From a virus (lineage: Duplodnaviria; Caudoviricetes), in IMG/VR virus record IMGVR_UViG_3300042275_000327, positions 1-64,000 of that record: a DNA stretch of 64,000 nucleotides. One strand, written 5' to 3'. The notes below the pieces were generated by a model. The model made no database searches. It was not told the origin of the DNA and was given only the letters and a program-made list of their open reading frames with translations. The position numbers were made by a program, and so were the translations under genes. Shown here in pieces: positions 1,482-14,471 of the stretch (position 1 is the stretch's first letter; the number at the start of each line of letters is the position of its first letter).

Positions 1482-1868
1482 ATGGATATGGATAAAACAA
1501 GAGAAACAAGAATAAAGATTGAAAGAGCTATCGGCGAAGCTCTGATTGATTGGACTGAGAAAGAGAATCCAAAATTATCCAGAGATGAAGTCATGGAAGA
1601 TTCTATTAAGAATATTAATTCTTGGGAAGTCAAAGGGTCAAATCTTTCAGAAGATGAAGATGGAGTTTTAAAATATACTCTCATTGTTGAAAGACCTGGA
1701 TTAGTGATTGGATCAATGGGAAAACAGATCAAATTCTTGATTAAGCGTTCAAAAGAAATTCTTGGATTTGATTATGAACTTCATCTCAATGAACAAAAAA
1801 GATCTCATTTATATGATGTTATGGATGGATGGTTTTCTATGAGAATGCTTCAGGAGGGAATACTGTGA
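1482..1868 (+). CDS. Type II KH-domain protein, ribosomal protein S3-like
   Basis: YTLIVERPGLVIGSMGKQIKFL resembles the S3 KH segment ([14 protein letters not shown]) and has a GxxG loop. Confidence 0.65.
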   Translation: MDMDKTRETRIKIERAIGEALIDWTEKENPKLSRDEVMEDSIKNINSWEVKGSNLSEDEDGVLKYTLIVERPGLVIGSMGKQIKFLIKRSKEILGFDYELHLNEQKRSHLYDVMDGWFSMRMLQEGIL

Positions 1869-2350
1869 GATATCCAATAGAAGAATATGAAATTTTGTAC
1901 AAGGGAACAAATTATGATATGACTTGTAGAGGTCTACAATATACCATGGATAGAGAGCATGTTCATTATGGGGATATTGGTATTTGCTATAGTGGATTTC
2001 ATGCTTGTAGAAATCCTCAAAATGTTTCAGCATTTTATCCTGTTCTCACTGAAAATTGTAGGATATTCAAAATTCTTGGACATGTTGTTTCAGAATTCAA
2101 AGGTTTTAGTGGATATCCAAAAGTAGTTTGTGACTCTATCAAATTTTTAGAAGAAATTACAATTACAGATTTAATAGATGTTCTTGATAACAAGAAGATT
2201 GATGATCCTCTTTATAAGCTTGCACATAGTCTTGAATTTAGAATAGACAAAATGAGAGAATATAAAGAGAAAAAAAAACATATGAAGAAAAGGTATCCTG
2301 GTTCCTTAGAAGAATCTGGGCAACAAAATACTATACAATCAATCAGATGA
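1865..2350 (+). CDS. Conserved phage protein with GFHAC motif
   Basis: YKG...CRGLQY...CYSGFHACRNP motif; likely GTG start at 1865 after GGAGG. Confidence 0.55.
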   Translation: MRYPIEEYEILYKGTNYDMTCRGLQYTMDREHVHYGDIGICYSGFHACRNPQNVSAFYPVLTENCRIFKILGHVVSEFKGFSGYPKVVCDSIKFLEEITITDLIDVLDNKKIDDPLYKLAHSLEFRIDKMREYKEKKKHMKKRYPGSLEESGQQNTIQSIR

Positions 2351-2571
2351 AAAAATTCATTGATTATATAGACTCTTTAGATGATACACATCTTTTTCAT
2401 TTTTTATCTGCTGGCTGGGGTTATTCTCTAGATGATATCAGGAGTTTACCAAGAGAATTTAAATTTTTAGGAAAAAAATCTCATACTTATCCAGATTCTA
2501 GTGATTCTTATGAATATTGGTATGAGAAACAATCCAAAAAACTCAATAGAAAAAGGAAGACTCAAAAATGA
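2347..2571 (+). CDS. Hypothetical protein
   Basis: ORF with ATGA overlaps on both sides. Confidence 0.6.
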   Translation: MKKFIDYIDSLDDTHLFHFLSAGWGYSLDDIRSLPREFKFLGKKSHTYPDSSDSYEYWYEKQSKKLNRKRKTQK

Positions 2572-3620
2572 AGAATGAATTTTCTATAATTGAAGATAAA
2601 GAAACAAAATTTCTATTTTCAGAAGAAGCAAATTATGCTTTCAACAAAGAGACTGGATATATGGAATCTTGGGGAAGAACTCGAGAAGACAATCCTGTGA
2701 AGTTTCCTGCTCCAACAATTCTCGATTTTGAGGTCACTACCAAGTGCACTGGAGTTGGGGGAGTACTTTGCCCATTCTGCTATAAGGCAAATAATCCAAA
2801 TGGAAAGAATCTTTCTTTTGAGAATTTCAAAAAGATTTTTGATAAGCTTCCAAGATCTATCACTCAGATTGCTTTTGGAGCAGACTCTAAATGTATGACA
2901 AATCCTGATATTTGGGACATGATGCTTTATGCAAAAGATAAAGGAGTCATTCCTAATATCACAGTAGCAGAATTAGATAAAGAGACAGCTTGTAAACTTG
3001 CTTCTATTTGTGGAGCTGTTGCAGTCTCGAGATATCACAACCCAGACATTTGTTATAATTCTGTAAAATATCTTGCAGATTGTGGATTGAAGCAAGTCAA
3101 TATTCATTATATGATTGCAGAGGAGACTTATGATAGAGCAGTACAGACAATCAAGGATGCAGCTACAGACGAAAGATTGAAAGATTTGAATGCTATTGTG
3201 TTCTTGAGTCTAAAAACCAAAGGTAGAGGAGAGCACTTTCATCCTCTATCACAAGCTAAATTTGACTCTCTGGTAAATCTTTGCAATGAACTTAATATAT
3301 CATATGGTTTTGACAGTTGCAGCTCTCTGAAATATTTCAGGAGTCTCTCTGATAAAGAATACAAGCTTTACTCAGGTTATGTTCAACCTTGTGAGTCTAC
3401 TCTAGAAAGTTCATACATTAATGTAGATGGAGAATTCTTTCCTTGTTCATTTACTGAAGGAACTCAAGGATGGGAAAAAGGAATCTCAGTTCTAGACTGT
3501 GACAATTTTGTAGATGATGTTTGGAACAATCCTAGAACAGAAGAGTTCAGAAATAGACTTCTTGGTTCTACCTGTAAAAACAGATTTGGATGTCGTGAAT
3601 GTCCAATATATACAATCTAA
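2568..3620 (+). CDS. Radical SAM enzyme with C-terminal SPASM/Twitch-type domain
   Basis: DFEVTTKCTGVGGVLCPFCY (Cx7Cx2C); C-terminal PCES...YINVDGEFFPCSF...CRECP. Confidence 0.85.
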   Translation: MKNEFSIIEDKETKFLFSEEANYAFNKETGYMESWGRTREDNPVKFPAPTILDFEVTTKCTGVGGVLCPFCYKANNPNGKNLSFENFKKIFDKLPRSITQIAFGADSKCMTNPDIWDMMLYAKDKGVIPNITVAELDKETACKLASICGAVAVSRYHNPDICYNSVKYLADCGLKQVNIHYMIAEETYDRAVQTIKDAATDERLKDLNAIVFLSLKTKGRGEHFHPLSQAKFDSLVNLCNELNISYGFDSCSSLKYFRSLSDKEYKLYSGYVQPCESTLESSYINVDGEFFPCSFTEGTQGWEKGISVLDCDNFVDDVWNNPRTEEFRNRLLGSTCKNRFGCRECPIYTI

Positions 3621-3635
3621 ATGGAGAAAAAATAA

Positions 3636-3950
3636 ATGCTTTCAAACAATCTTGAATTTAAAGAGTCTGAAGTTTCTAATGACACTCTGATTTTGGTAAA
3701 TGGTTCTATTGTAGGAGATTTTAATACTGATGGAAGAGTTAGATTTTTTGGATCTTCTACCTCTATTACTCTTCTAGCATATGAGAATCTCAAGGATATC
3801 TGTAATAAGATAGAAGAAAATATCAGAATCCAAATAGAAAACGATTGGAATGAGTGTGATGACTGGCAGGAGAATGAAGCTTTCTTTGATGATCTAGGAG
3901 AAGATGAAGAAGAGGATTTTGTCTTCGATCCTGATGATACTTTTTTCTAA
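3636..3950 (+). CDS. Hypothetical protein with acidic C-terminal tail
   Basis: GGAG RBS; tail DDLGEDEEEDFVFDPDDTFF. Confidence 0.65.
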   Translation: MLSNNLEFKESEVSNDTLILVNGSIVGDFNTDGRVRFFGSSTSITLLAYENLKDICNKIEENIRIQIENDWNECDDWQENEAFFDDLGEDEEEDFVFDPDDTFF

Positions 3951-3961
3951 GGAGAACAAAA

Positions 3962-4138
3962 ATGATCTTTAAGCATGAACCAACAGGATATTATGTAGAA
4001 GCAGAAAGTCCTTTGAAAGCAAAGTATATTCTTCAAAAAGAAGTAAGAAAAGATTTTCATTCCATAGATTTTAAAAGAGTAGAATCTGTTCCTTTTATGT
4101 CTATTTCAAAATTTATCAATAGAAGGAGATCTAATTGA
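3962..4138 (+). CDS. Small hypothetical protein (58 aa, not in ORF track)
   Basis: AAGGAG RBS; MIFKHEPTGYYVEAE...; fills the gap between neighbouring genes. Confidence 0.55.
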   Translation: MIFKHEPTGYYVEAESPLKAKYILQKEVRKDFHSIDFKRVESVPFMSISKFINRRRSN

Positions 4139-4389
4139 CACAAAGAAAATTGATTCAGTCTATCATAAAGAGAAAAGGAAATTGTTCTCATGTTAACTGT
4201 GATGGAGGAAGTTATATTCCAGAGAAGTTTGGAAGAGAGATCTTGGAACCTTTAGAAGATTTTTCAAATCTAGGAGTTCCTTGTCCTTTGTATGATCAAT
4301 GCTCAAATGACTCTGATCAAAAAGATGTTCTGCTTATGGCAAAAGTATATATGAAAAAACTAAAGAAGGAAAAGAAAAAGGATGATTAG
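4135..4389 (+). CDS. Cys-rich hypothetical protein
   Basis: AAGGAG RBS with TTG start; KGNCSHVNC...CPL. Confidence 0.6.
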   Translation: MTQRKLIQSIIKRKGNCSHVNCDGGSYIPEKFGREILEPLEDFSNLGVPCPLYDQCSNDSDQKDVLLMAKVYMKKLKKEKKKDD

Positions 4390-4561
4390 TGAGCAAGAGG
4401 CTGAAAGATTTGCTGAAGAGTATATAGCTGAAACAGCTACTTTTTATCAAATTCCAAAAGAGTATATTGCAGATGATGAAGTAAAAGCTAATCTAAAAGA
4501 CTTCTTTATGAAGTTTATGAATAAGGAGAAAGACAATGAAGAAGAGAATGGGATTTGTTAG
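4382..4561 (+). CDS. Small acidic hypothetical protein (59 aa, not in ORF track)
   Basis: MISEQEAERFAEEYIAE...; overlaps the preceding stop. Confidence 0.5.
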   Translation: MISEQEAERFAEEYIAETATFYQIPKEYIADDEVKANLKDFFMKFMNKEKDNEEENGIC

Positions 4562-4619
4562 TAACAGCAGTTCAAGTAGTTTTTGTATTCTAGGAATTCC
4601 TTTTGGGAGAGAAGTCTAA
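4536..4619 (+). CDS. 27-aa GFVSNSSSSSF-motif peptide (family member 1)
   Basis: AAGGAG RBS then MKKRMGFVSNSSSSSFCILGIPFGREV*. Confidence 0.7.
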   Translation: MKKRMGFVSNSSSSSFCILGIPFGREV

Positions 4620-4629
4620 AATCTTTTTC

Positions 4630-4658
4630 TGAAAAATAGAAAAGATTTTTAATATACT
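4630..4658 (+). promoter_or_regulatory. Class II promoter-like site
   Basis: TGAAAA-N17-TATACT. Confidence 0.55.
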
Positions 4659-4683
4659 GTAGATATAAAGGAGAAAAACAAAG

Positions 4684-5127
4684 ATGTATTCACAAAGTAT
4701 AAGACTTGATCAGTTGTGCTATTTCAGTGAAATCAATTCAGAAAGAATTGACTATTTGTTTGAAGAAGCAAAAACTGTGGATTTAGATTTTGAATGGAAT
4801 TATAAGCTGTCTCTTAAGAATGAGCACTTTCATCTAAAGAAAGGATTTTATTATCTTCTTATGACTTTCTTTCTGACTTCTATCTCTTTCTTTATTCCTA
4901 TAAATCTTTTTGTAGTTTATCTAGTGTCTTTGTTTTTATGTATACTTGCTACAGAACAGATGTTTCTTTCTAATTGTTATACAAAGAAGACAAGAGAAGC
5001 TATAAATCTTTTTGAGACTGTCTCTAATAAGATATATAAAGAGATAGGATCTCTCATTCGAGACAATGATAGAATCATAGAAGAAATGAGAGAAATTCTA
5101 GAAGGATGGCCAGAAAATGAAAAGTAG
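4684..5127 (+). CDS. Membrane protein (2 TM)
   Basis: AAGGAG RBS; hydrophobic stretch FYYLLMTFFL...LFLCILA. Confidence 0.65.
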   Translation: MYSQSIRLDQLCYFSEINSERIDYLFEEAKTVDLDFEWNYKLSLKNEHFHLKKGFYYLLMTFFLTSISFFIPINLFVVYLVSLFLCILATEQMFLSNCYTKKTREAINLFETVSNKIYKEIGSLIRDNDRIIEEMREILEGWPENEK

Positions 5128-5632
5128 ACTAGGGTTTGTAAGTAATAGCTCTTCTTCCTCTTTTATTGTTGCTTTTGAAAAGCCAATAGAAAGATATAAA
5201 GAAGAAGAGTTGAAACTATTGTTGTTTAGAACAACTGATCCTGTGATTAAAGGATATTATGATGATTTAAGTACAGATGAACTTCTTAAATGTGCTCTAC
5301 AGAATGCTCAGGAAGTCTCTCTTAATGAAGATCTATCTTTTAGATTTCCTGAGGAAGATGAAGAGAGCTTCTATTTTCCTAAGGATTATTGGGATGCTAC
5401 TGAAACTCTAAAAGCTCAGGGATTTGATGAATACAGTAAAAAGATTGAAGAAGAGATGATACGAACAGCTAAAGAAAAGACAAGAGATCTTCTTAAAGAA
5501 GTTAGGAAAAGAAAATATGTTCCAGCTTATTATTACTTTTATTTTTCAGATAATGATGGGTCAGTATATAGCTATTTGGAACATGAAGGAATCTTTGAAA
5601 GACTTCCTTATCTGATGGAGAATAACCACTAG
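5117..5632 (+). CDS. GFVSNSSSSSF-motif protein (member 2)
   Basis: N-terminus MKSRLGFVSNSSSSSFIV. Confidence 0.85.
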   Translation: MKSRLGFVSNSSSSSFIVAFEKPIERYKEEELKLLLFRTTDPVIKGYYDDLSTDELLKCALQNAQEVSLNEDLSFRFPEEDEESFYFPKDYWDATETLKAQGFDEYSKKIEEEMIRTAKEKTRDLLKEVRKRKYVPAYYYFYFSDNDGSVYSYLEHEGIFERLPYLMENNH

Positions 5633-5633
5633 A

Positions 5634-6080
5634 ATGAAAAAGAGAAATGGTTTTGTGAGCAATAGTTCTTCTTCCTCTTTTATCATAAGAGCAGACTGTC
5701 TTAGAGATGACAATCCTTATGATTCAATGGAAGAAACAGAACTTGAAATAAAGTTTTTCAAAGAAAAAGGGTATCTACCAAAAGACTATCAACCTATTAT
5801 AGGAGAAAAAGCTCTTCAAGAAGAAATAGAAAAAATAAGAGAAAAAATTGAAGATTTAGATGTAAACTATTATTGGGACTTTGAATACTATAAGGGGTAT
5901 CTTTTGTTTTCCACTACTATGGACAACTTTGATATTATGGAATATCTAGAAACAATATATGGAAAGAGAAAAATTCGAAAAGCATTGGAAATCTTTCCTC
6001 ATAATGGATACAGAGAGGAATTAGGAATTTCTGGACTAAGAAATATGATAGACAAGTATTTTTATCCAATAGGGGATTAA
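5634..6080 (+). CDS. GFVSNSSSSSF-motif protein (member 3)
   Basis: N-terminus MKKRNGFVSNSSSSSFII. Confidence 0.85.
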   Translation: MKKRNGFVSNSSSSSFIIRADCLRDDNPYDSMEETELEIKFFKEKGYLPKDYQPIIGEKALQEEIEKIREKIEDLDVNYYWDFEYYKGYLLFSTTMDNFDIMEYLETIYGKRKIRKALEIFPHNGYREELGISGLRNMIDKYFYPIGD

Positions 6081-6083
6081 GAA

Positions 6084-6686
6084 ATGAAAATCAGAAATGG
6101 GTTTGTAAGTAACAGCAGCTCTTCTTCTTTTATTGTTATCTATGATAATATATGTGAAGAAACAGATTTATTCAGTACAGATGACTCAAAAGAAGATATA
6201 TGTAGGAAAATAGAAGAAGAATATCTTGATGATCCAAATTTTGTTTTTGTCTTTTTTCAAGGGACTTCAGGAGAATGTGCACCAATGCTCATTGAGCCTA
6301 ATGATGAGATAAAAATGTTCATCAAAGACAAAAAACTTTTTTCAGACAATAATGTATTCATACGACTTATTAAATCAGTATATATTCTAAAAAGTAAAAT
6401 AGCTCCAGATAATGTTTCTTTAGATACAGTCTATGATTGTACATCTTTTTTGAATAGTTTGGACAGTCAATTAAATTCATGCTCAATTCAATTCAGCAAT
6501 TTTGATAATTCATCTATTCATAAAGATGATCCATTAGCTCTAGAAAAGTTTGTCTCTTATTTAGAGATTAGACATGTTTTTGATCCAGATTATCAAAGAT
6601 TTGGATTTATATCAGAAACTGAATTTAATACTATGGACGAAGATATCCAAGAATACTATCGTTATCTTGCAGGAGAAATAAAATGA
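6084..6686 (+). CDS. GFVSNSSSSSF-motif protein (member 4)
   Basis: N-terminus MKIRNGFVSNSSSSSFIV. Confidence 0.85.
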   Translation: MKIRNGFVSNSSSSSFIVIYDNICEETDLFSTDDSKEDICRKIEEEYLDDPNFVFVFFQGTSGECAPMLIEPNDEIKMFIKDKKLFSDNNVFIRLIKSVYILKSKIAPDNVSLDTVYDCTSFLNSLDSQLNSCSIQFSNFDNSSIHKDDPLALEKFVSYLEIRHVFDPDYQRFGFISETEFNTMDEDIQEYYRYLAGEIK

Positions 6687-7162
6687 AGAAAAGAATAGGA
6701 TTTGTAAGCAACAGCTCCAGCAGCTCCTTTATTATAGGAGTTGCAAAAGTTCTTGACGAAGAAAAGTTGAAAGAAGATCTTTATGATATAGATGATTGTA
6801 AGATTATTTCAAAGAAATCTCTAGAAGCTTATCTTCTCAGAAATTCTGATGGTAGAGCGATTCCTCTTGAAGGATCAGATCTAGCAGGTCTAAAAGCTCC
6901 TACAAATGATGAAGAGCCTTGTTATTTTGAAGTTGATCAATTAGAAGATGATGATAAAATTCTTCTTGTCAACATAGGACATGGAGAAGATGATGGTCCA
7001 TTCTATAAAGAAGGATTCTATGGTCTAGATTATTCTATTGTGAATGAGGAATATTTTAAGACTAATTTTCCTGATTCTTACAAGATGTTGGAGTACTTGA
7101 AAGGAAAAGATGGAATTACTGAGAGGATGTCTTATCGATTTGGAGTTTCCAGAAATGGATAA
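6683..7162 (+). CDS. GFVSNSSSSSF-motif protein (member 5)
   Basis: N-terminus MKKRIGFVSNSSSSSFII. Confidence 0.85.
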   Translation: MKKRIGFVSNSSSSSFIIGVAKVLDEEKLKEDLYDIDDCKIISKKSLEAYLLRNSDGRAIPLEGSDLAGLKAPTNDEEPCYFEVDQLEDDDKILLVNIGHGEDDGPFYKEGFYGLDYSIVNEEYFKTNFPDSYKMLEYLKGKDGITERMSYRFGVSRNG

Positions 7163-7171
7163 GGAGAAAAA

Positions 7172-7801
7172 ATGTTAACTACAATGCATGCTTTTCTAGA
7201 AAGGAAAAACAATAAAGGAAAATGGGAATCATTAGATAAATGGTCTTATCAAGATGTTGATGGAAAAAGACAGTACTACATTTCCAAATATGATTCAACT
7301 TTTTATGGAGATGACAATGAGTTTTCAATGTTGTTTGGAGGTAGAAAAGATGAGGACAATTCTCCAATCATAGAATTGAGAGGACTTCCTGATGATATTT
7401 CATGGCAAGTAAAAAATTGTTATTCTCATTGGAAAAATGATGCTCATTCTCCATCTTGGTTTCTGTTATCAGAGTTGAAAGATTTTGATTGGGAAAAGAA
7501 ATATAAGAAAAAAGGTTTTCTTGATATTCGAGGATATGAACTTCTGATGAATGGAGATTATCCTTGGTATACATTCAATCCAAATTGGTATTCTCCAATA
7601 AAAGAATGCAAAGAAATTTCTGAAGAAGAAATGAAGAAAGTTTTAGAAACAAATGAAGAGAATGATGTGATTCTTTATTGTAAAACAATGTGGGAACAGC
7701 CTTATAAGAGTCTCTTTCCTTATCTTCTTGGACTAATTGAGAAACTTAAACAAAAAGGCTCTTTGGACTCTATGAGAATAGTCTATTGGTTTGATAATTA
7801 G
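7172..7801 (+). CDS. Conserved phage hypothetical protein
   Basis: RGLPDD...AHSPSWFLLSEL...RIVYWFDN motif pattern; AAGGAG RBS. Confidence 0.7.
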   Translation: MLTTMHAFLERKNNKGKWESLDKWSYQDVDGKRQYYISKYDSTFYGDDNEFSMLFGGRKDEDNSPIIELRGLPDDISWQVKNCYSHWKNDAHSPSWFLLSELKDFDWEKKYKKKGFLDIRGYELLMNGDYPWYTFNPNWYSPIKECKEISEEEMKKVLETNEENDVILYCKTMWEQPYKSLFPYLLGLIEKLKQKGSLDSMRIVYWFDN

Positions 7802-7813
7802 GAGTGTCCAAAA

Positions 7814-8071
7814 ATGAAGAAATTTGAAGCAGGAAATTATGTTCGATTTGAGTCAGGATGTTCTAGAGACAATCAGATTTTTCATGGAAAAGTTCTAGAA
7901 GAAGTTTCAGACACAGAAGTATTAATTCTTTGGGATGACTTCAGATTGTCAATTATGGATATAGAAGAAGAATATGAATTAAGACATTATGAGCCAGACG
8001 AACAAGAGGCAAAATTTCTTCAAGCATTGGAAGGTATCTATAAAGAATTTGGAGAGGAGGTTTTCAAATGA
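7814..8071 (+). CDS. Hypothetical protein (possible SH3-like barrel)
   Basis: FEAGNYVRF...GKVLE...VLILWD. Confidence 0.55.
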   Translation: MKKFEAGNYVRFESGCSRDNQIFHGKVLEEVSDTEVLILWDDFRLSIMDIEEEYELRHYEPDEQEAKFLQALEGIYKEFGEEVFK

Positions 8072-8373
8072 AAAAGAGAACAGGATTTGTAAGCAATAGT
8101 AGTTCATCTTCTTTTATTGTACATAAGAGTGAGATGACAGATGAAAATTGGGAAAAATTGATGGATCTCCTAGAAAGAATAAAAGAGGAAGAGTTCGACC
8201 ACTGGGGGTTTACTTCTGGATGGAATGATTCTGGAGTTTATTGGTATACTATGAATAATTACATAGAAGTCGCTTGGCATAACTTTCCAAGTGATTACAG
8301 AGAAGAAGTAAAAAGTCTTATTCATGATAGCTATAGATCTTTCAAAGAAAAGGTTTGTTTTGTAGGAGATTAA
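8068..8373 (+). CDS. GFVSNSSSSSF-motif protein (member 6)
   Basis: N-terminus MKKRTGFVSNSSSSSFIV. Confidence 0.85.
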   Translation: MKKRTGFVSNSSSSSFIVHKSEMTDENWEKLMDLLERIKEEEFDHWGFTSGWNDSGVYWYTMNNYIEVAWHNFPSDYREEVKSLIHDSYRSFKEKVCFVGD

Positions 8374-8375
8374 AT

Positions 8376-8918
8376 ATGAAAAAGAGAAATGGTTTTGTAA
8401 GTAATTCTAGTTCTTCTTCTTTTATTATTGTTTCTGATAAAGAAGAAATAGACACTCCATTAGCACTTAATGGAACAATTAAGATTCCTAGAAATGAGAT
8501 GGGAGAAATAGATTTTTCCAGAATAGGAGGATTCTATCAAGACTTTGACTCTAAACTGAATTTTATTGTTCTCCAGGCTCTCTATTCAGATATTCAAGAA
8601 TATATGGATGCTGTACTAGATGTACTGAAAATGAAATTTGGAGATGAAGTCAAATTTGAGATCAATCTCAGAAGAGAATTTTATGATTTCTATGAGGAAA
8701 ACGCTGATGAAAAAGGATTATACTATGGCTCTATAGATCATGATTCTATTGGAGGAGAATTCTACAATATGCTAGAAAGTGCTGCAAATGGAAATACAGA
8801 TGATCTATATAATTTTCTTTTCAAGTCAGAGAGTTATCTCATGATGGGAGAAGACGGATTTGAAGAGTCTAGAGAAGAGCTAGAAAAGAAAGGAAAAGTA
8901 TTTTCTGACTTTCTTTAG
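8376..8918 (+). CDS. GFVSNSSSSSF-motif protein (member 7)
   Basis: Likely start at ATG 8376 after AGGAG: MKKRNGFVSNSSSSSFII. Confidence 0.85.
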   Translation: MKKRNGFVSNSSSSSFIIVSDKEEIDTPLALNGTIKIPRNEMGEIDFSRIGGFYQDFDSKLNFIVLQALYSDIQEYMDAVLDVLKMKFGDEVKFEINLRREFYDFYEENADEKGLYYGSIDHDSIGGEFYNMLESAANGNTDDLYNFLFKSESYLMMGEDGFEESREELEKKGKVFSDFL

Positions 8919-8945
8919 AAAATAAAAAAGAGATTTTTGTATAAT
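8917..8945 (+). promoter_or_regulatory. Class II promoter-like site
   Basis: AGAAAA-N17-TATAAT, then TATATAGGAG. Confidence 0.45.
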
Positions 8946-8968
8946 ATGTATATAGGAGAAAACTAAAA

Positions 8969-9313
8969 ATGAAAGATGTAACAAAAATGAGTGTACAGGA
9001 TATTATTGACTATGAGCTGTATGGATTCACTTATCTCAAGAATATTGATGGAGAAAGAAAAGCTATTGTTGCAGGAATTCCCAAGAATGGGTCTGTCTTT
9101 GTTGGGTACTCTTTCTGCAATCCAAAAGATGACTTTGATGTGAATGAGGGCTTGAGAATTGCAATTGAAAGAGCTCTGAAGAATGACAACATGTATGATT
9201 TCTCAGAACTCCCAGACTATGCAAAGAAACAGAGGAGAGTTCTTCTTCATAGATATGTTGAACCTCTTGTTGCTCGAATGGCTCGTCGCTGGTATGATCC
9301 TAAGAAGAAGTGA
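8969..9313 (+). CDS. Conserved phage protein
   Basis: VGYSFCNPKDDFDVNEGLRIAIERA motif. Confidence 0.65.
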   Translation: MKDVTKMSVQDIIDYELYGFTYLKNIDGERKAIVAGIPKNGSVFVGYSFCNPKDDFDVNEGLRIAIERALKNDNMYDFSELPDYAKKQRRVLLHRYVEPLVARMARRWYDPKKK

Positions 9314-9317
9314 ATAT

Positions 9318-9370
9318 TGAAGAGAGAATTCTGAGGAGAGAATTAAAAAAGTTCTCTCTTCAGTCGCTTT
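9318..9370 (+). terminator. Intergenic hairpin, possible terminator
   Basis: CTGAGGAGAGAAT/GTTCTCTCTTCAG stem with a weak U-tract. Confidence 0.4.
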
Positions 9371-9380
9371 AGGAGAAAAT

Positions 9381-9587
9381 ATGACTTTTGAAGAAGAAAA
9401 ATCTAATGTTTACTCAGCAATAGAACTTTCTAAGACTTTTAAAAATAAATCTCTAATTGTAAAAATCAATAATTTAAATCTTGAAGAACTTATAAAAGAT
9501 TTATCAGAAAATGGGTATATTGTACGTGTAAATTTAATTTGTTATATTGATAAAAACATGTCTAGTATAACAATAACTTGGGAGTAA
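9381..9587 (+). CDS. Hypothetical protein
   Basis: AGGAG RBS. Confidence 0.55.
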   Translation: MTFEEEKSNVYSAIELSKTFKNKSLIVKINNLNLEELIKDLSENGYIVRVNLICYIDKNMSSITITWE

Positions 9588-9593
9588 ATAAAA

Positions 9594-10424
9594 ATGAAAG
9601 CAAATAGTCTGAGTATTTCAATCCCTTCAGAAGCCACTTGTAAAAAGAATTGTCCATATTGTGTTTCCAAAATGACTGGAAAAGCAAATGTGGATTATGT
9701 GAATTTCTTTAGAAATCTTAAGAAAGCTAGAAAGATTGCTGACAATGCAGATATTTCTTGTGTGATTATCACGGGAAAAACAGAACCTCTACAACTAGAA
9801 AACCTTGAGATGTTTCTTGATATTTGTAAGATGTTTCAAGACTATCCTATTGAGGTTCAGACAAATGGAACAACTCTGAATCAAGGAGCAGTTCTCAGAA
9901 CTCTGAATGAAGCAAGAGTCAATACTGTTGCTGTATCAGTTGACAATTGGAATCAGATGAGAGAACAGGGAGAAATCCTCAACAGACTTTCCAAGCTTGG
10001 ATTCAATACAAGAGTAACAATCAACCTTACAGAAAATATTCTTTCTCATAGTCATTGGGATTATGTAAGAATTTGTTCTTATAGTGGAATAAATCAGATG
10101 TCTTTCAGAGAACTGACGATTCCTAGTAATTTTGTAGAAACAAATGAAAGTAGAGAAGCTATCAATTATATCCAATCTGTAGATCTAGAGAAAGTAAAAA
10201 CTTTTCTTGAAGGATTCAATAATCTCATCCTTGAGGAAGGGACATTTGTAAGAAATCTCCCATTTGGAGCTAGCATCTATATGATAGATGGAATTTCTGC
10301 AACTATCTTCAGACATTGTATTCAAGAGAATTCTAATGAAGACGATATCAGAAGTCTTATCTACTATGAAGATGGTCATATGTCTACTTCTTGGTATGGA
10401 TCTAATTTTGGAAGGATATTCTGA
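9594..10424 (+). CDS. Radical SAM enzyme
   Basis: CKKNCPYC (Cx3Cx2C), IITGKTEP, EVQTNG, AVSVD. Confidence 0.85.
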   Translation: MKANSLSISIPSEATCKKNCPYCVSKMTGKANVDYVNFFRNLKKARKIADNADISCVIITGKTEPLQLENLEMFLDICKMFQDYPIEVQTNGTTLNQGAVLRTLNEARVNTVAVSVDNWNQMREQGEILNRLSKLGFNTRVTINLTENILSHSHWDYVRICSYSGINQMSFRELTIPSNFVETNESREAINYIQSVDLEKVKTFLEGFNNLILEEGTFVRNLPFGASIYMIDGISATIFRHCIQENSNEDDIRSLIYYEDGHMSTSWYGSNFGRIF

Positions 10425-11755
10425 TGGAACTCAATCCAAAATGGTCATGGGTAGAAACAGACTCAAAACAATTCTCTGCAGCTCTTGATGCAATACTAAA
10501 TACTGATGACAATCTCTTCCTGATAGGTCCAGCGGGAGTAGGAAAGTCTATTCTTTTGAAAATTGCTTATGATCACTTCAGAAATGTATTGGTTCTAGGA
10601 CCAACAGGAATTAGTGCTGCTAATCTCTCTACAGATGGAGTTCCAGCAACAACAATACATTCAGCTCTGAAGATACCACCAGTAAATGTCTATAATACTT
10701 TGAGACTTAGCAATGATGCCATAAATCTTATCACTAGAACAAAACTGATTCTAATTGATGAGATCTCAATGGTAAATGCTTCTTTAATGGATTTTGTTCT
10801 GAAAGCTTCTAGATTATCTTCAGAATTTGTAAAACCAAGAATTATCATCTTTGGAGATATCTTTCAGCTTCCTCCTGTAAGATCTGATAACATCTATGCT
10901 GTAAGCAAATACTTTGATAAGATCTATGATGGAAATTATTTCTTCTTTAGTGCAAGATTATATGAAAAATTCAAATTCAAGACTTTCCATTTGAATGAGG
11001 TATATCGACAGAAAGATCCTGTATTTAAGAATGCTCTGAATAGAATCCGTCTAGGAGTTTGTACTCAAGAAGACCTTGATCTTATCAATACAAGAGTAGT
11101 GAAGAACAAACAAGAATTCATTGACTCACATCCTTATATGTTGTATCTGGCTTCTACAAATAAGATTGTAAACAAGCTGAATCTTCAGTATACAGCAAGA
11201 CCAGAATTTACAAAGAGAATTACTTATGAAGCAATTCTGAAAGGAGACTTTGACATCAGAAATCATCCTGGACTAGATTACAAAATTGAGATTGCTCAGG
11301 GACAACAAGTGATCTGTACTGCTAATAATTCAGAAGGAGGATATCAGAATGGAACTCTTGGAATTGTAGAGGATGTCTTTGAGGATTTTGTAAGAATCAG
11401 AAAACAAGATGGAACTGTAGTCTATGTTATTCGACAGAACTGGGATAAATTTGAGTATTTCCTTGATGAAGAAACTGATGAAGTCACTCACAAATCTGTG
11501 GGATCTTGTAATCAAATTGCCTGCAAGCCTGCTTTTGCTGTAACATTCCACAAGAGTCAAGGTCTGACTTTAGATTCTATCTTCATAGATCTTTCTTCTA
11601 AGTTTGTACCAGAGTCAGGAGTCTATTTGGCTCTCTCAAGATGTAGAACACTAGAAGGAATTGGGCTCTCAAGACCGATCACTATGGATGACATCATTGT
11701 AAGTGCAGAAGCTCTAGAATTTATGTTGGAGAACTTTGATGAAGAAAATATATAG
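10424..11755 (+). CDS. PIF1/RecD-like SF1B DNA helicase
   Basis: GPAGVGKS, IDEISM, GDIFQLPPV, LNEVYRQ, AVTFHKSQGLTLD, YLALSR. Confidence 0.92.
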   Translation: MELNPKWSWVETDSKQFSAALDAILNTDDNLFLIGPAGVGKSILLKIAYDHFRNVLVLGPTGISAANLSTDGVPATTIHSALKIPPVNVYNTLRLSNDAINLITRTKLILIDEISMVNASLMDFVLKASRLSSEFVKPRIIIFGDIFQLPPVRSDNIYAVSKYFDKIYDGNYFFFSARLYEKFKFKTFHLNEVYRQKDPVFKNALNRIRLGVCTQEDLDLINTRVVKNKQEFIDSHPYMLYLASTNKIVNKLNLQYTARPEFTKRITYEAILKGDFDIRNHPGLDYKIEIAQGQQVICTANNSEGGYQNGTLGIVEDVFEDFVRIRKQDGTVVYVIRQNWDKFEYFLDEETDEVTHKSVGSCNQIACKPAFAVTFHKSQGLTLDSIFIDLSSKFVPESGVYLALSRCRTLEGIGLSRPITMDDIIVSAEALEFMLENFDEENI

Positions 11756-13034: not shown

Positions 13035-13043
13035 ACTTGTTTT

Positions 13044-13073
13044 CCCTCCTTATAGTTTAAGGAGGGGTATTTT
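13044..13073 (+). terminator. Rho-independent terminator-like hairpin
   Basis: CCCTCCTTA/TAAGGAGGG stem followed by GTATTTT. Confidence 0.6.
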
Positions 13074-13094: not shown

Positions 13095-14471
13095 ATGAAA
13101 GATGCTGCAACAAAAGTTTGTAAAATTCTCCAGGATCATGGACACCAAGCAGTCTTTGCTGGAGGATGTGTCAGAGACATGCTTTTGAAAAAAGAGCCTC
13201 ATGATATTGACATTGCCACTAGTGCTACTCCAAAAGAAGTTGTAGAAATTTTCAAGAAAACTGTTCCTATTGGAATATCTTTTGGAGTTGTTCAGGTTCA
13301 TATGGATGGATTTCAGTTTGAGGTTGCTACCTTCAGAACAGAGTCAAAGTCTTCCGATGGAAGAAGACCAGATTCTATTAAATTTTCCTCTATGGAAGAA
13401 GATGCAAAAAGAAGAGATTTCACAGTCAATGCTCTTTTCTATGATCCAATAAAAGATGAGATCTATGATTTTGTAGATGGGAAAAACGATATTTACACTA
13501 GAACTCTTCGATTTGTTGGAAATCCAAAAGAAAGACTTGAAGAAGATCAATTGAGAGCATTGAGAGCCATCAGGTTTTCTTCAAATGACTTCAAACTTGA
13601 TAAAGATACTTCTTTAGCTCTTTTATCAGCAGATATCTCTAAGCTCTCAAAAGAAAGAATCAAATCTGAATTGGATAAGATATTGCTGTTAAAAAATTGT
13701 TCTGAAGCTTTTGAAAGACTGATGGGATTTGGACTTTTAGAACAGATTATTCCTGAGATGAAAGATCTATTGACGGCATATCATGAAATAAGATGGCATC
13801 CTGAAGGACATCCTTGGAGACATACTCTTATTGTCTTGGATCTAGCTAGAAGTCGGACTGACAATCTTAATATTCTTTGGGGAGCTCTCCTTCATGATAT
13901 TGGAAAGCCAGCAACTGAAAAAGTCATAGACGGAAAATATACAAATCATGGACATGCTGAAGTTGGAGAAGAAATTGCAGAAAAGATCTTGAGAAATTTA
14001 AGAGCTCCTAATTGTCAGATTGATGAAGTAAAATTCTTGGTAAAGAATCATATGAGAATCAAGAATGCTTCCAAGATGAAAAAGTCTAAGATTGCTCGAC
14101 TGAAAGCAGAAAAGTTCTATGAAGATCTGAGACTTCTCTCTATCTGTGATTCTCAGGCAACAGGAATTCCAGAAAATCTTAATTGGGTAAAACACCTAGA
14201 CAAGGTAGAGGAATATAAGGAACTCCCAAAACCATTTCTCAATGGATATGATTTGAAAGATATTGGAGTTCTTCCAGGTTCCTGGATGGGATATCTTCTA
14301 GACAAGCTTATGGATCTTCAATTAGAAGGAAAGATAAGAGACAGAGAAGATGCTTTAGTTGAGGCAAAAAGAATAATTAAAGAAGATAAGAACGCTGATC
14401 ATACCTATTTTTCAAATATGATTCAGATGGGAATGAATCCAGGATTTATGAAAAGAAAATATGAAAATTAA
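13095..14471 (+). CDS. cca: CCA-adding tRNA nucleotidyltransferase (class II) with HD domain
   Basis: GGCVRD, DIDIAT, EVATFR, EDAKRRDFTVNAL, EEDQLRALRAIRF; HD motif LLHDIGKP. Confidence 0.9.
   Translation: MKDAATKVCKILQDHGHQAVFAGGCVRDMLLKKEPHDIDIATSATPKEVVEIFKKTVPIGISFGVVQVHMDGFQFEVATFRTESKSSDGRRPDSIKFSSMEEDAKRRDFTVNALFYDPIKDEIYDFVDGKNDIYTRTLRFVGNPKERLEEDQLRALRAIRFSSNDFKLDKDTSLALLSADISKLSKERIKSELDKILLLKNCSEAFERLMGFGLLEQIIPEMKDLLTAYHEIRWHPEGHPWRHTLIVLDLARSRTDNLNILWGALLHDIGKPATEKVIDGKYTNHGHAEVGEEIAEKILRNLRAPNCQIDEVKFLVKNHMRIKNASKMKKSKIARLKAEKFYEDLRLLSICDSQATGIPENLNWVKHLDKVEEYKELPKPFLNGYDLKDIGVLPGSWMGYLLDKLMDLQLEGKIRDREDALVEAKRIIKEDKNADHTYFSNMIQMGMNPGFMKRKYEN

Follow-up and report, generated by a model that had tools for sequence, protein, structure and literature searches.

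A serine-rich N-terminal tag on unrelated phage proteins and its radical-SAM partner: a probable protein-modification system of large phages

The window considered here is the whole stretch of 64,000 nucleotides formed by positions 1 to 64,000 of the IMG/VR virus record IMGVR_UViG_3300042275_000327, part of a 147,626-bp phage genome. It harbors, on the + strand, a gene encoding a radical S-adenosylmethionine (SAM) enzyme (2568-3620) and, further downstream, an array of seven open reading frames (ORFs) whose products all start with the same 16 residues, M-K-x-R-x-G-F-V-S-N-S-S-S-S-S-F, hereafter the tag; in the six full-length members, this tag is followed by mutually unrelated bodies. The enzyme and the tag occur together across the genomes of large phages and are likely to be functional partners. 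On balance, the tag is more likely than not to be recognized and covalently changed by the enzyme, and the pair is probably an undescribed protein-modification system.

The tag and the proteins that carry it

A six-frame motif scan of the whole genome finds the tag in seven + strand ORFs and nowhere else. They start at 4536, 5117, 5634, 6084, 6683, 8068, and 8376, and their N-termini follow the pattern MK[KSI]R[MLNIT]GFVSNSSSSSF[CI][IV], the Gly being residue 6 in all. Six of them are full length, with 101 to 200 amino acids (aa); the product of the ORF at 4536 (4536-4619, + strand) is 27 aa long, comprises the tag and 11 residues, and is followed by several in-frame stops. This truncation and the further stops mark it as the decayed remnant of a member of the ‘FC-I-x-G’ type. 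Weak similarity to members of the same type is also observed beyond the first stop, over 4536-4760 (+ strand).

The six intact genes are all on the + strand. The 171-aa product of 5117-5632 belongs to the widespread phrog_7397/RB16p111 family and is a full-length member of it, positions 1-170 of 170 being matched (E 1.9e-7); the match of phrog_7397 to the other six tagged products is limited to the first 18-36 positions, i.e., to the tag. The 148-aa product of 5634-6080 has a body belonging to the largest body cluster (38 members, with a ‘T-x-MDNFD’ motif), and the 159-aa product of 6683-7162 possesses ~100 full-length relatives. The 180-aa product of 8376-8918, the ATG of which is located within a longer TTG frame beginning at 8355, belongs to a 14-member body cluster marked by an ‘IDHxS’ motif. 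The remaining two, 6084-6686 (200 aa) and 8068-8373 (101 aa), have singleton bodies. The genes are closely packed or overlapping, and the array is interrupted by untagged ORFs at 4684, 7172, and 7814.

The bodies were compared after removal of the tag, using a collection of 418 from the window and from related loci. They distribute into 152 BLAST clusters, and hhalign joins four pairs among the 20 largest; the six full-length bodies of the window lie in separate clusters, unlinked by profile comparison. Pfam analysis of 148 cluster representatives returned two zinc-ribbon matches and no others. The tagged proteins range from ~70 to 390 aa, and 92% of the bodies have an isoelectric point (pI) below 6; those of the window are acidic, with pI values of 4.35-5.15 and net charges of -9 to -21. 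A Pfam scan of the seven tagged proteins assigned no domain, an NCBIfam scan gave no family match for the window proteins scanned, and the anti-phage defence and counter-defence models of PADLOC matched neither the two radical-SAM proteins of the region (that of 2568 and a second one at 9594) nor five tagged proteins. No near-identical DNA was retrieved among cultured phages by megablast of the region.

At the nucleotide level, pairs of copies differ at a mean of 6.4 codons (range 3-10) over the 14 invariant tag residues, with AGY/TCN Ser codon switches between copies at tag positions 11-15. Nucleotide identity among copies amounts to 75% in the 48-nt tag, against 40% over the following 48 nt. 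The codon divergence, Ser switches included, indicates that selection acts at the peptide level, and a DNA- or RNA-level repeat is ruled out as the nature of the tag. A preliminary description of this DNA had pointed to a common N-terminal tag at a fixed distance from Met, to mostly acidic bodies without obvious mutual similarity, and to a selected peptide rather than a DNA repeat; the ORF listing and motif scan, the pI values and body comparisons, and the codon differences confirm these three points.

The logo established from 431 distinct tagged proteins reads M-K-[I]-R-x-G-F-V-S-N-S-S-S-S-S-F-[IV]-[IV]. To avoid circularity, half-anchored logos were also built, sequences being selected by one half of the tag and scored in the opposite half. 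By this measure, K2 (302/303) and R4 (303/303) are nearly or fully invariant, N10 and S11 reach essentially 100%, and S12 and S15 are retained in 409 and 404 of 413 sequences, respectively. Substitution by Thr, Ala, Gly, or Cys is seen at S9, S13, and S14, and some tags carry S, N, R, or K in place of G6. A search of 5.8 billion proteins, confined to the first 40 residues, yielded ~4,260 tag-matching protein clusters, 110-350 aa long; no relevant Pfam domain is present among the best 120 of these ~4,260 clusters.

AlphaFold2 models based on family alignments were obtained for two of the window proteins, with mean predicted local distance difference test (pLDDT) values of 89.6 (6683) and 90.4 (5117). 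In both, the protein is predicted to fold as an antiparallel α+β sandwich that includes the first strand. Residues 1-10 score ~53 in the 6683 model and 44 in the 5117 model, where they are disordered; the first strand, spanning residues 12-23 and 13-20, respectively, exceeds 90 after the arm in both. According to these models, tag residues 1-10 form a free arm, and the Ser run together with F-[IV]-[IV] constitutes strand 1 of the body. The preliminary description had put forward a substrate or recognition leader; a detachable leader is not borne out, since the distal half of the tag is the first strand of the sandwich in two confident models. That description had also named a case that would speak against it, the motif being a structural strand of one characterized fold: a strand it is, in the models, but not that of one characterized fold.

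In both models, the remaining family-conserved residues occupy two sites, a loop that follows a late strand and the extreme C-terminus. They are D145 (YSDNDG), E155-H156 (LEHG), F160, and the C-terminal His171 in the 5117 family, and E102, D104 (NDEGD), F107, Y117, a DYD motif, and the C-terminal G-x-x-R-N-G in the 6683 family. These residues would adjoin the beginning of strand 1. Both models display the same order of elements, and a common ancestral core of the two families is possible. Fold searches of both models against the PDB (Foldseek, VIA wide) gave nothing above Z 4.5 or TM 0.39, with generic ferredoxin/ACT-like rows, and one model each against BFVD and the ESM Atlas likewise gave nothing above these values. 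A MIDAS-, HAD-, or P-loop-like catalytic loop in a Rossmann-type fold was considered and rejected: the models exhibit an antiparallel α+β sandwich, with the Ser run inside strand 1. In another large tagged family, the tag runs straight into the CxxC knuckle of a zinc ribbon. Because the zinc ribbon follows the tag directly there, the tag is portable between folds, being strand 1 of a different fold in that family.

The radical-SAM enzyme and its association with the tag

The product of the 2568 gene matches the Pfam SPASM model with 24.5 bits (cut-off 21.5) and phrog_7293 with an E value of 2e-111, and its family counts more than 2,000 homologs at ~50% identity. Its cluster motif, C60-x7-C68-x2-C71, comprises three Cys that are invariant in 30 aligned homologs. 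Several homologs possess the canonical CX3CX2C, so the extra residues of 2568 are a loop insert. Pfam PF04055 is recorded for many homologs, 2568 itself being below the cut-off of that model. By its three-Cys motif, the protein is assigned to the radical-SAM superfamily. The family also exhibits a conserved 50-residue N-terminal extension.

SPASM domains (PF13186) bind two auxiliary clusters through a seven-Cys pattern, CX9-15GX4C … CX2CX5CX3C … C, and the Twitch domain is a truncated SPASM with four Cys and a single auxiliary 4Fe-4S cluster. In 2568, the auxiliary Cys are C275, C293, C342, and C345, invariant or nearly so, arranged as CX12GX4C (C275-G288-C293) and CX2C. The protein ends five residues after CX2C and lacks the second half of the SPASM pattern; a full SPASM domain is thus discarded. 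When the family profile was compared to solved structures, the sole match was BtrN (4m7t/4m7s; E 0.002); it covers residues 271-350 and brings the Cys columns into register. The missing second half and the BtrN match over the tail identify 2568, at the level of sequence, as a Twitch-type enzyme with one predicted auxiliary cluster. Its earlier designation as a SPASM-type radical SAM thus holds for the presence of an auxiliary domain, which is Twitch-like and not a full SPASM. An NCBIfam scan produced only a far-sub-threshold NirJ2 score (16.9 vs 500 bits) and no anSME or FxsB match.

Some homologs of the enzyme (P0160, P0201, P0233) contain inteins (Pfam Hint and intein-splicing domains), the gene is matched in two pieces in two cultured phages, and a homing endonuclease gene abuts it in Vibrio phage D479 (records KX431559.1, NC_029013.1, and OZ195776.1 for this set of observations). 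Selfish elements of this sort tend towards highly conserved target genes.

The association with the tag was surveyed in 96 loci possessing a 2568 homolog, 80 on viral contigs and 16 on contigs of metagenome-assembled genomes (MAGs), with flanks of up to 10 kb. Tagged ORFs lie within 10 kb of the enzyme in 77 of them, up to 13 per locus. All 282 tagged ORFs of these loci are on the strand of the enzyme, 247 being downstream, at a median distance of 1.6 kb. This co-occurrence and co-orientation establish the link between the tag and the radical SAM of gene 2568 that the preliminary description had proposed. Among the 19 loci without a nearby tag, seven belong to RB16/KP15-type relatives of T4, in which tags are found ~20 kb away. 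Clustering of all same-strand neighbors showed that, the enzyme aside, the recurring families are all tagged (30, 18, 17, 17, 17, 15, and 11 loci). No untagged neighbor family is present in more than 9 of the 96 loci, and no recurrent protease, peptidase, transporter, RiPP (ribosomally synthesized and post-translationally modified peptide) recognition element (RRE), or other helper was found. As only tagged families recur beside the enzyme, gene content points to a system of two components, the enzyme and the tagged proteins.

The reverse search, using a degenerate DNA pattern for the tag in viral contigs, listed more than 119 stretches. Among the matches listed, 44 of 118 new tag-anchored stretches contain the enzyme, and ~27 more have it elsewhere on the contig; of 10 sampled tag contigs devoid of the enzyme in the fetched stretch, three carry it elsewhere. 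In 50,697 cultured-phage records, the enzyme is present in 173 and an RB16p111-type tagged protein in 175, with matching genus counts. These carriers include the E. coli phages RB16 and RB43, as well as Lw1, KP15, KP27, Miller, and CfP1. Vibrio phage D479 represents a separate cultured lineage and has the enzyme and three tags within 9 kb. In RB16 (locus L215, record 67262-71000), the tagged RB16p108 and RB16p111 flank RB16p109, a 739-aa protein with an N-terminal von Willebrand factor A (vWA) domain, and the enzyme is RB16p156, 20 kb from the tagged genes.

The ‘bacterial and archaeal’ enzyme matches, i.e., MAG contigs L081-L096, look like phage contigs, and no clear cellular, non-phage context for the enzyme-tag pair was seen in this sample. 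On L088, a 178-kb contig assigned to Flagellimonas marina, the fetched ORFs closely match KP15/RB16-type phage loci. Some enzyme loci contain, instead of or beside the Ser-rich tag, arrays of 3-5 other small paralogs with common N-termini of their own (L031, 8276-9937; L077, 12452-14461), e.g., MLKN..IR.L.I..C.DL..NYPKI; these may be alternative tag types.

Variants of the tag provide a further link to the enzyme. A tag variant in which Thr occupies position 9 (GFVTNSSSSSF) is found in 11 tag-anchored stretches (10 contigs) among the matches listed, and every tag there is changed. The enzyme of three Thr9 loci is 26-28% identical to that of the window, as compared to 36-69% for 83 Ser9 loci. 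The same sister enzyme is encoded on the contigs of three of five further Thr9 loci, and one more contig gives a correspondingly weak family-profile match. In total, the Thr9 tag is accompanied by the sister enzyme in seven of nine contigs tested, the two negatives being 29-33% complete. The sister enzyme can be aligned over its entire length, shares 27 of the 39 conserved columns, including the DSC, PCE, and PCSF motifs, and retains the C-terminal CxxC in pairwise alignment; it differs at E55, K73, N75, N112, and V211, adjoining the cluster motif, the spacing of which is CX7CX6C. The pairing of the Thr9 variant with a sister enzyme clade points to co-evolution. A direct partner common to all tags would be expected to give such a uniform genome-wide change of the tag, matched by a split of the enzyme, although shared descent could also produce this pattern. 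In L084, all four tags are W7/G9, and its enzyme shows no W7/G9-specific substitutions in the conserved columns.

A proposed mechanism, its precedents, and its rivals

Several characterized systems bear some resemblance to the phage pair. The anaerobic sulfatase-maturating enzymes (anSME/AtsB) act before folding, one enzyme serving many substrates, and the modified residue ends inside the folded protein. Like the phage pair, they associate a radical SAM bearing a C-terminal Fe-S auxiliary domain with a conserved, short Ser/Cys motif located close to the N-terminus of entire proteins rather than of exported peptides. In contrast, the phage tag lacks the (C/S)-x-(P/A)-x-R motif, its enzyme has no NCBIfam anSME match and one auxiliary-cluster motif instead of two, and the phage-borne tagged proteins are not sulfatases and share no common fold family. 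Membership of the anSME/AtsB family is rejected on the substrate motif and the NCBIfam result. BtrN, a 2-deoxy-scyllo-inosamine dehydrogenase that oxidizes an alcohol of a small molecule, is the founding Twitch-domain radical-SAM enzyme; its auxiliary domain and four cluster Cys align with those of 2568, and both proteins end soon after CX2C. By analogy, alcohol oxidation is a plausible chemistry for a Ser-rich target. The identity to BtrN is nevertheless very low and confined to the auxiliary domain, 2568 displays its 50-residue extension and cluster-loop insert, and the BtrN substrate is a small molecule.

Maturases of RiPPs (streptide StrB/SuiB, sactipeptides, triceptide cyclophane) also combine one enzyme with several adjacent genes sharing a recognition sequence. 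A RiPP cluster typically encodes a short precursor with a removable leader or follower, and a protease, transporter, or RRE. The phage pair differs by folded proteins of 70-390 aa, by a common piece inside the fold, and by the lack of these recurrent helpers; a RiPP biosynthetic cluster was rejected, the tag being strand 1 of 159- and 171-aa folded domains. The FxSxx-COOH/FxsB system was reportedly introduced by Haft and Basu in 2011. In vWA-MoxR (VMAP) conflict systems, FxSxx-COOH peptides are associated with the FxsB radical-SAM/SPASM protein, carry a motif at their extreme C-terminus, and are released by a zincin metallopeptidase (Kaur et al. 2020, PMC7159879). Common features with the phage pair are fast-diverging small proteins, a short conserved motif with F-x-S, an adjacent radical SAM, and a conflict context; in RB16-type phages, the vWA protein flanked by tagged genes also recalls vWA-MoxR systems. 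Since the phage motif is N-terminal and neither an FxsB match nor a recurrent peptidase is found, membership of that system was dropped; furthermore, no vWA gene was seen beside the window array among the ORFs examined. Finally, the T4 internal proteins are hypervariable small phage proteins with a common short N-terminal sequence. That sequence is cleaved off, and the T4 internal proteins have no known enzyme partner; in contrast, the distal half of the tag is a core strand, and the tag is associated with a radical SAM.

In the mechanism proposed here, one Twitch-type enzyme would recognize the invariant N-terminal 16-mer on a variable set of acidic early proteins of small size, of which this phage has six intact. 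As with anSME and its sulfatases, binding would probably take place before folding is complete and would involve the free arm together with the first part of the strand; the enzyme would then abstract a hydrogen from N10, S11, S12, or S15, residues that are never substituted. Conversion of a Ser side chain to an aldehyde would be the most likely chemistry, by analogy with the BtrN and anSME dehydrogenases, and epimerization or a cross-link may be envisaged; any single chemistry, taken alone, is decidedly doubtful. The modified residue would stand at the mouth of strand 1, beside the conserved acidic loop and the C-terminus of each family, and many different proteins would thereby be given the same chemical handle or built-in cofactor. 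This complete picture, a covalent change at N10-S12 or S15 that endows thousands of small acidic phage proteins, otherwise unrelated, with a common reactive handle or built-in cofactor at the entrance of strand 1, and hence creates a new class of enzyme-armed effector, is tentative and should be seen as possible rather than probable. Being small, acidic, encoded in an early region, and subject to rapid turnover, the bodies themselves fit host-takeover or anti-defence proteins.

Several observations weigh against covalent modification of the tag. Neither modification nor direct binding was observed in this sequence-based analysis. In the models, the Ser run is a core strand, and a folded protein would therefore expose only residues 1-11 to the enzyme. 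The substitutions tolerated at S9, S13, and S14 mean that a hydroxyl is dispensable there and that the whole run need not be a substrate, and the tag does not contain the motif of anSME substrates. As for the linkage, ~8 enzyme loci have no recognizable tag nearby, seven tag-bearing viral contigs, all only 8-36% complete, are devoid of the enzyme, and the cultured carriers around RB16 and KP15 form one related group, so that their records are not independent. Co-folding of the enzyme with the 6683 protein, SAM, and two 4Fe-4S clusters gave scores of 0.21 and 0.11, below the mark of 0.32, in a run without controls, and carries no weight in either direction.

Binding without modification would account for part of these data. 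The tag could be a non-covalent docking handle, the tagged proteins being interchangeable adaptors, regulators, or substrate-delivery subunits of an enzyme whose true substrate (a small molecule, a nucleic acid, or a host protein) is elsewhere. The linkage and co-variation data are unable to separate binding from modification, a free N-terminal arm suits strand-type docking, and the enzyme loci without a tag suggest that the enzyme may have a tag-independent job. On the other hand, up to 13 tagged proteins per genome for one enzyme would be unusual for subunits, a docking strand would not normally require N10-S11-S12 and S15 to be invariant on both of its faces, and enzymes of the SPASM/Twitch group, BtrN included, act directly on the molecule that they bind; docking as the sole role is thus considered unlikely. 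A less probable view is that all tagged proteins form one very diverged superfamily with an α+β core, in which the motif provides strand 1 and a ligand or metal loop, the enzyme acting in the same pathway, e.g., by making the ligand, without touching the tag. In both models, the tag strand is indeed succeeded by a strand leading to an acidic D-x-D/E-G loop, by a helix, and by a C-terminal strand that is conserved; the models retrieve the same weak PDB rows (1w1o, 3pm9, 2y3y, 2nzc, 6wi5, 9gab), and a strand followed by an acidic motif is seen in several other clusters. This view is difficult to reconcile with the 152 clusters and the few pairs joined by hhalign, with the CxxC pairs that imply a different fold after the tag in one large family, with the span of member sizes, and with fold matches all below Z 5. 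Moreover, residues 1-10 are invariant yet disordered in both models, and must therefore serve an outside partner.

A sorting role, comparable to that of the capsid-targeting sequence of T4 internal proteins, would send the variable proteins to the virion or to another site. It has a precedent in T4 IPI-III, and the RB16-type tag carriers are T4 relatives. Such a role is very improbable, as it leaves the one-to-one, co-oriented radical-SAM linkage and the tag-enzyme co-variation unexplained, the tag has no L/I-x-E prohead-protease site, clipping would unfold a protein of which the distal half of the tag is a core strand, and the array occupies an early-type region on the strand opposite to the structural genes. 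The last reading concerns the second radical-SAM gene of the window (9594-10424, + strand), the product of which would be a second maturase, both flanking enzymes acting on the tag. Position in the window and the homologs of 9594 located near tags in L061 and L202 speak for it. However, these are the only homologs among 214 tag- or enzyme-bearing loci, the protein belongs to a separate family without auxiliary domain, and two unrelated ORFs separate its gene from the array. A joint action of the two enzymes is hardly credible in this phage and close to refuted at the family level. From its sequence family and rarity, 9594 is best described as a bystander, and the bracketing by two radical-SAM genes reported in the preliminary description is valid as a position, not as a functional set; the second enzyme that it had cast as tag-modifying is not retained. 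The likeness of R-x-G-F to the glycyl-radical motif RVxG[FY], with 9594 as activase, was rejected as well, 9594 being unlinked to the tag, G6 being replaced in some tags, and the bodies presumably being far too small to shield a glycyl radical. Recognition and covalent change by the Twitch-type enzyme remains the preferred reading.

Neighboring genes and significance

The array belongs to an early-type region whose strand is opposite to that of the myovirus tail and baseplate genes, and convincing terminator-like sites are present on its strand only at 671-700 and 13043-13067. Two genes upstream of the enzyme, 1829-2350 (+ strand) encodes a DUF7666 protein (E 3.5e-16) that is not conserved in related loci. 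Inside the array, 7172-7801 (+ strand) encodes an untagged 209-aa protein matching phrog_10141 (E 4e-28); a homolog, 28% identical, adjoins tagged genes in L038. The 276-aa product of 9594 possesses CX3CX2C at residues 16-23, matches Pfam Radical_SAM, and has mostly viral relatives. Its stop codon overlaps the ATG at 10424 of the following gene (10424-11755, + strand), a SF1B helicase of the RecD2/Pif1/Dda type (AAA_30 and PIF1 domains) that thus translationally abuts it. Further downstream, 13095-14471 (+ strand) encodes a CCA-adding tRNA nucleotidyltransferase-like protein with PolyA_pol head, RNA-binding, and HD domains (E 5e-38); the hairpin at 13043-13067, a strong terminator-like one, directly precedes it.

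Full-text literature searches returned no description of the tag motif, nor of the enzyme in RB43/KP15-type phages. The enzyme and the tagged genes do not appear in a report on an unknown DNA modification of KP15 and KP27 (PMC5219037), and the nearest printed idea is that of FxSxx-COOH/FxsB in vWA-MoxR systems. The tag marks thousands of protein clusters without known domain, the enzyme family exceeds 2,000 members, and both parts occur across large phages, ranging from T4-related phages of enterobacteria to fragments of megaphages. If the tag is indeed modified by the enzyme, the pair would be the first known case of phages maturing their own proteins with a radical-SAM system. It would illuminate a large block of phage ‘dark matter’, located in the early regions where host-takeover and anti-defence genes usually reside. 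As both parts exist in cultured phages of E. coli, Klebsiella, Enterobacter, and Vibrio, the question is directly testable.

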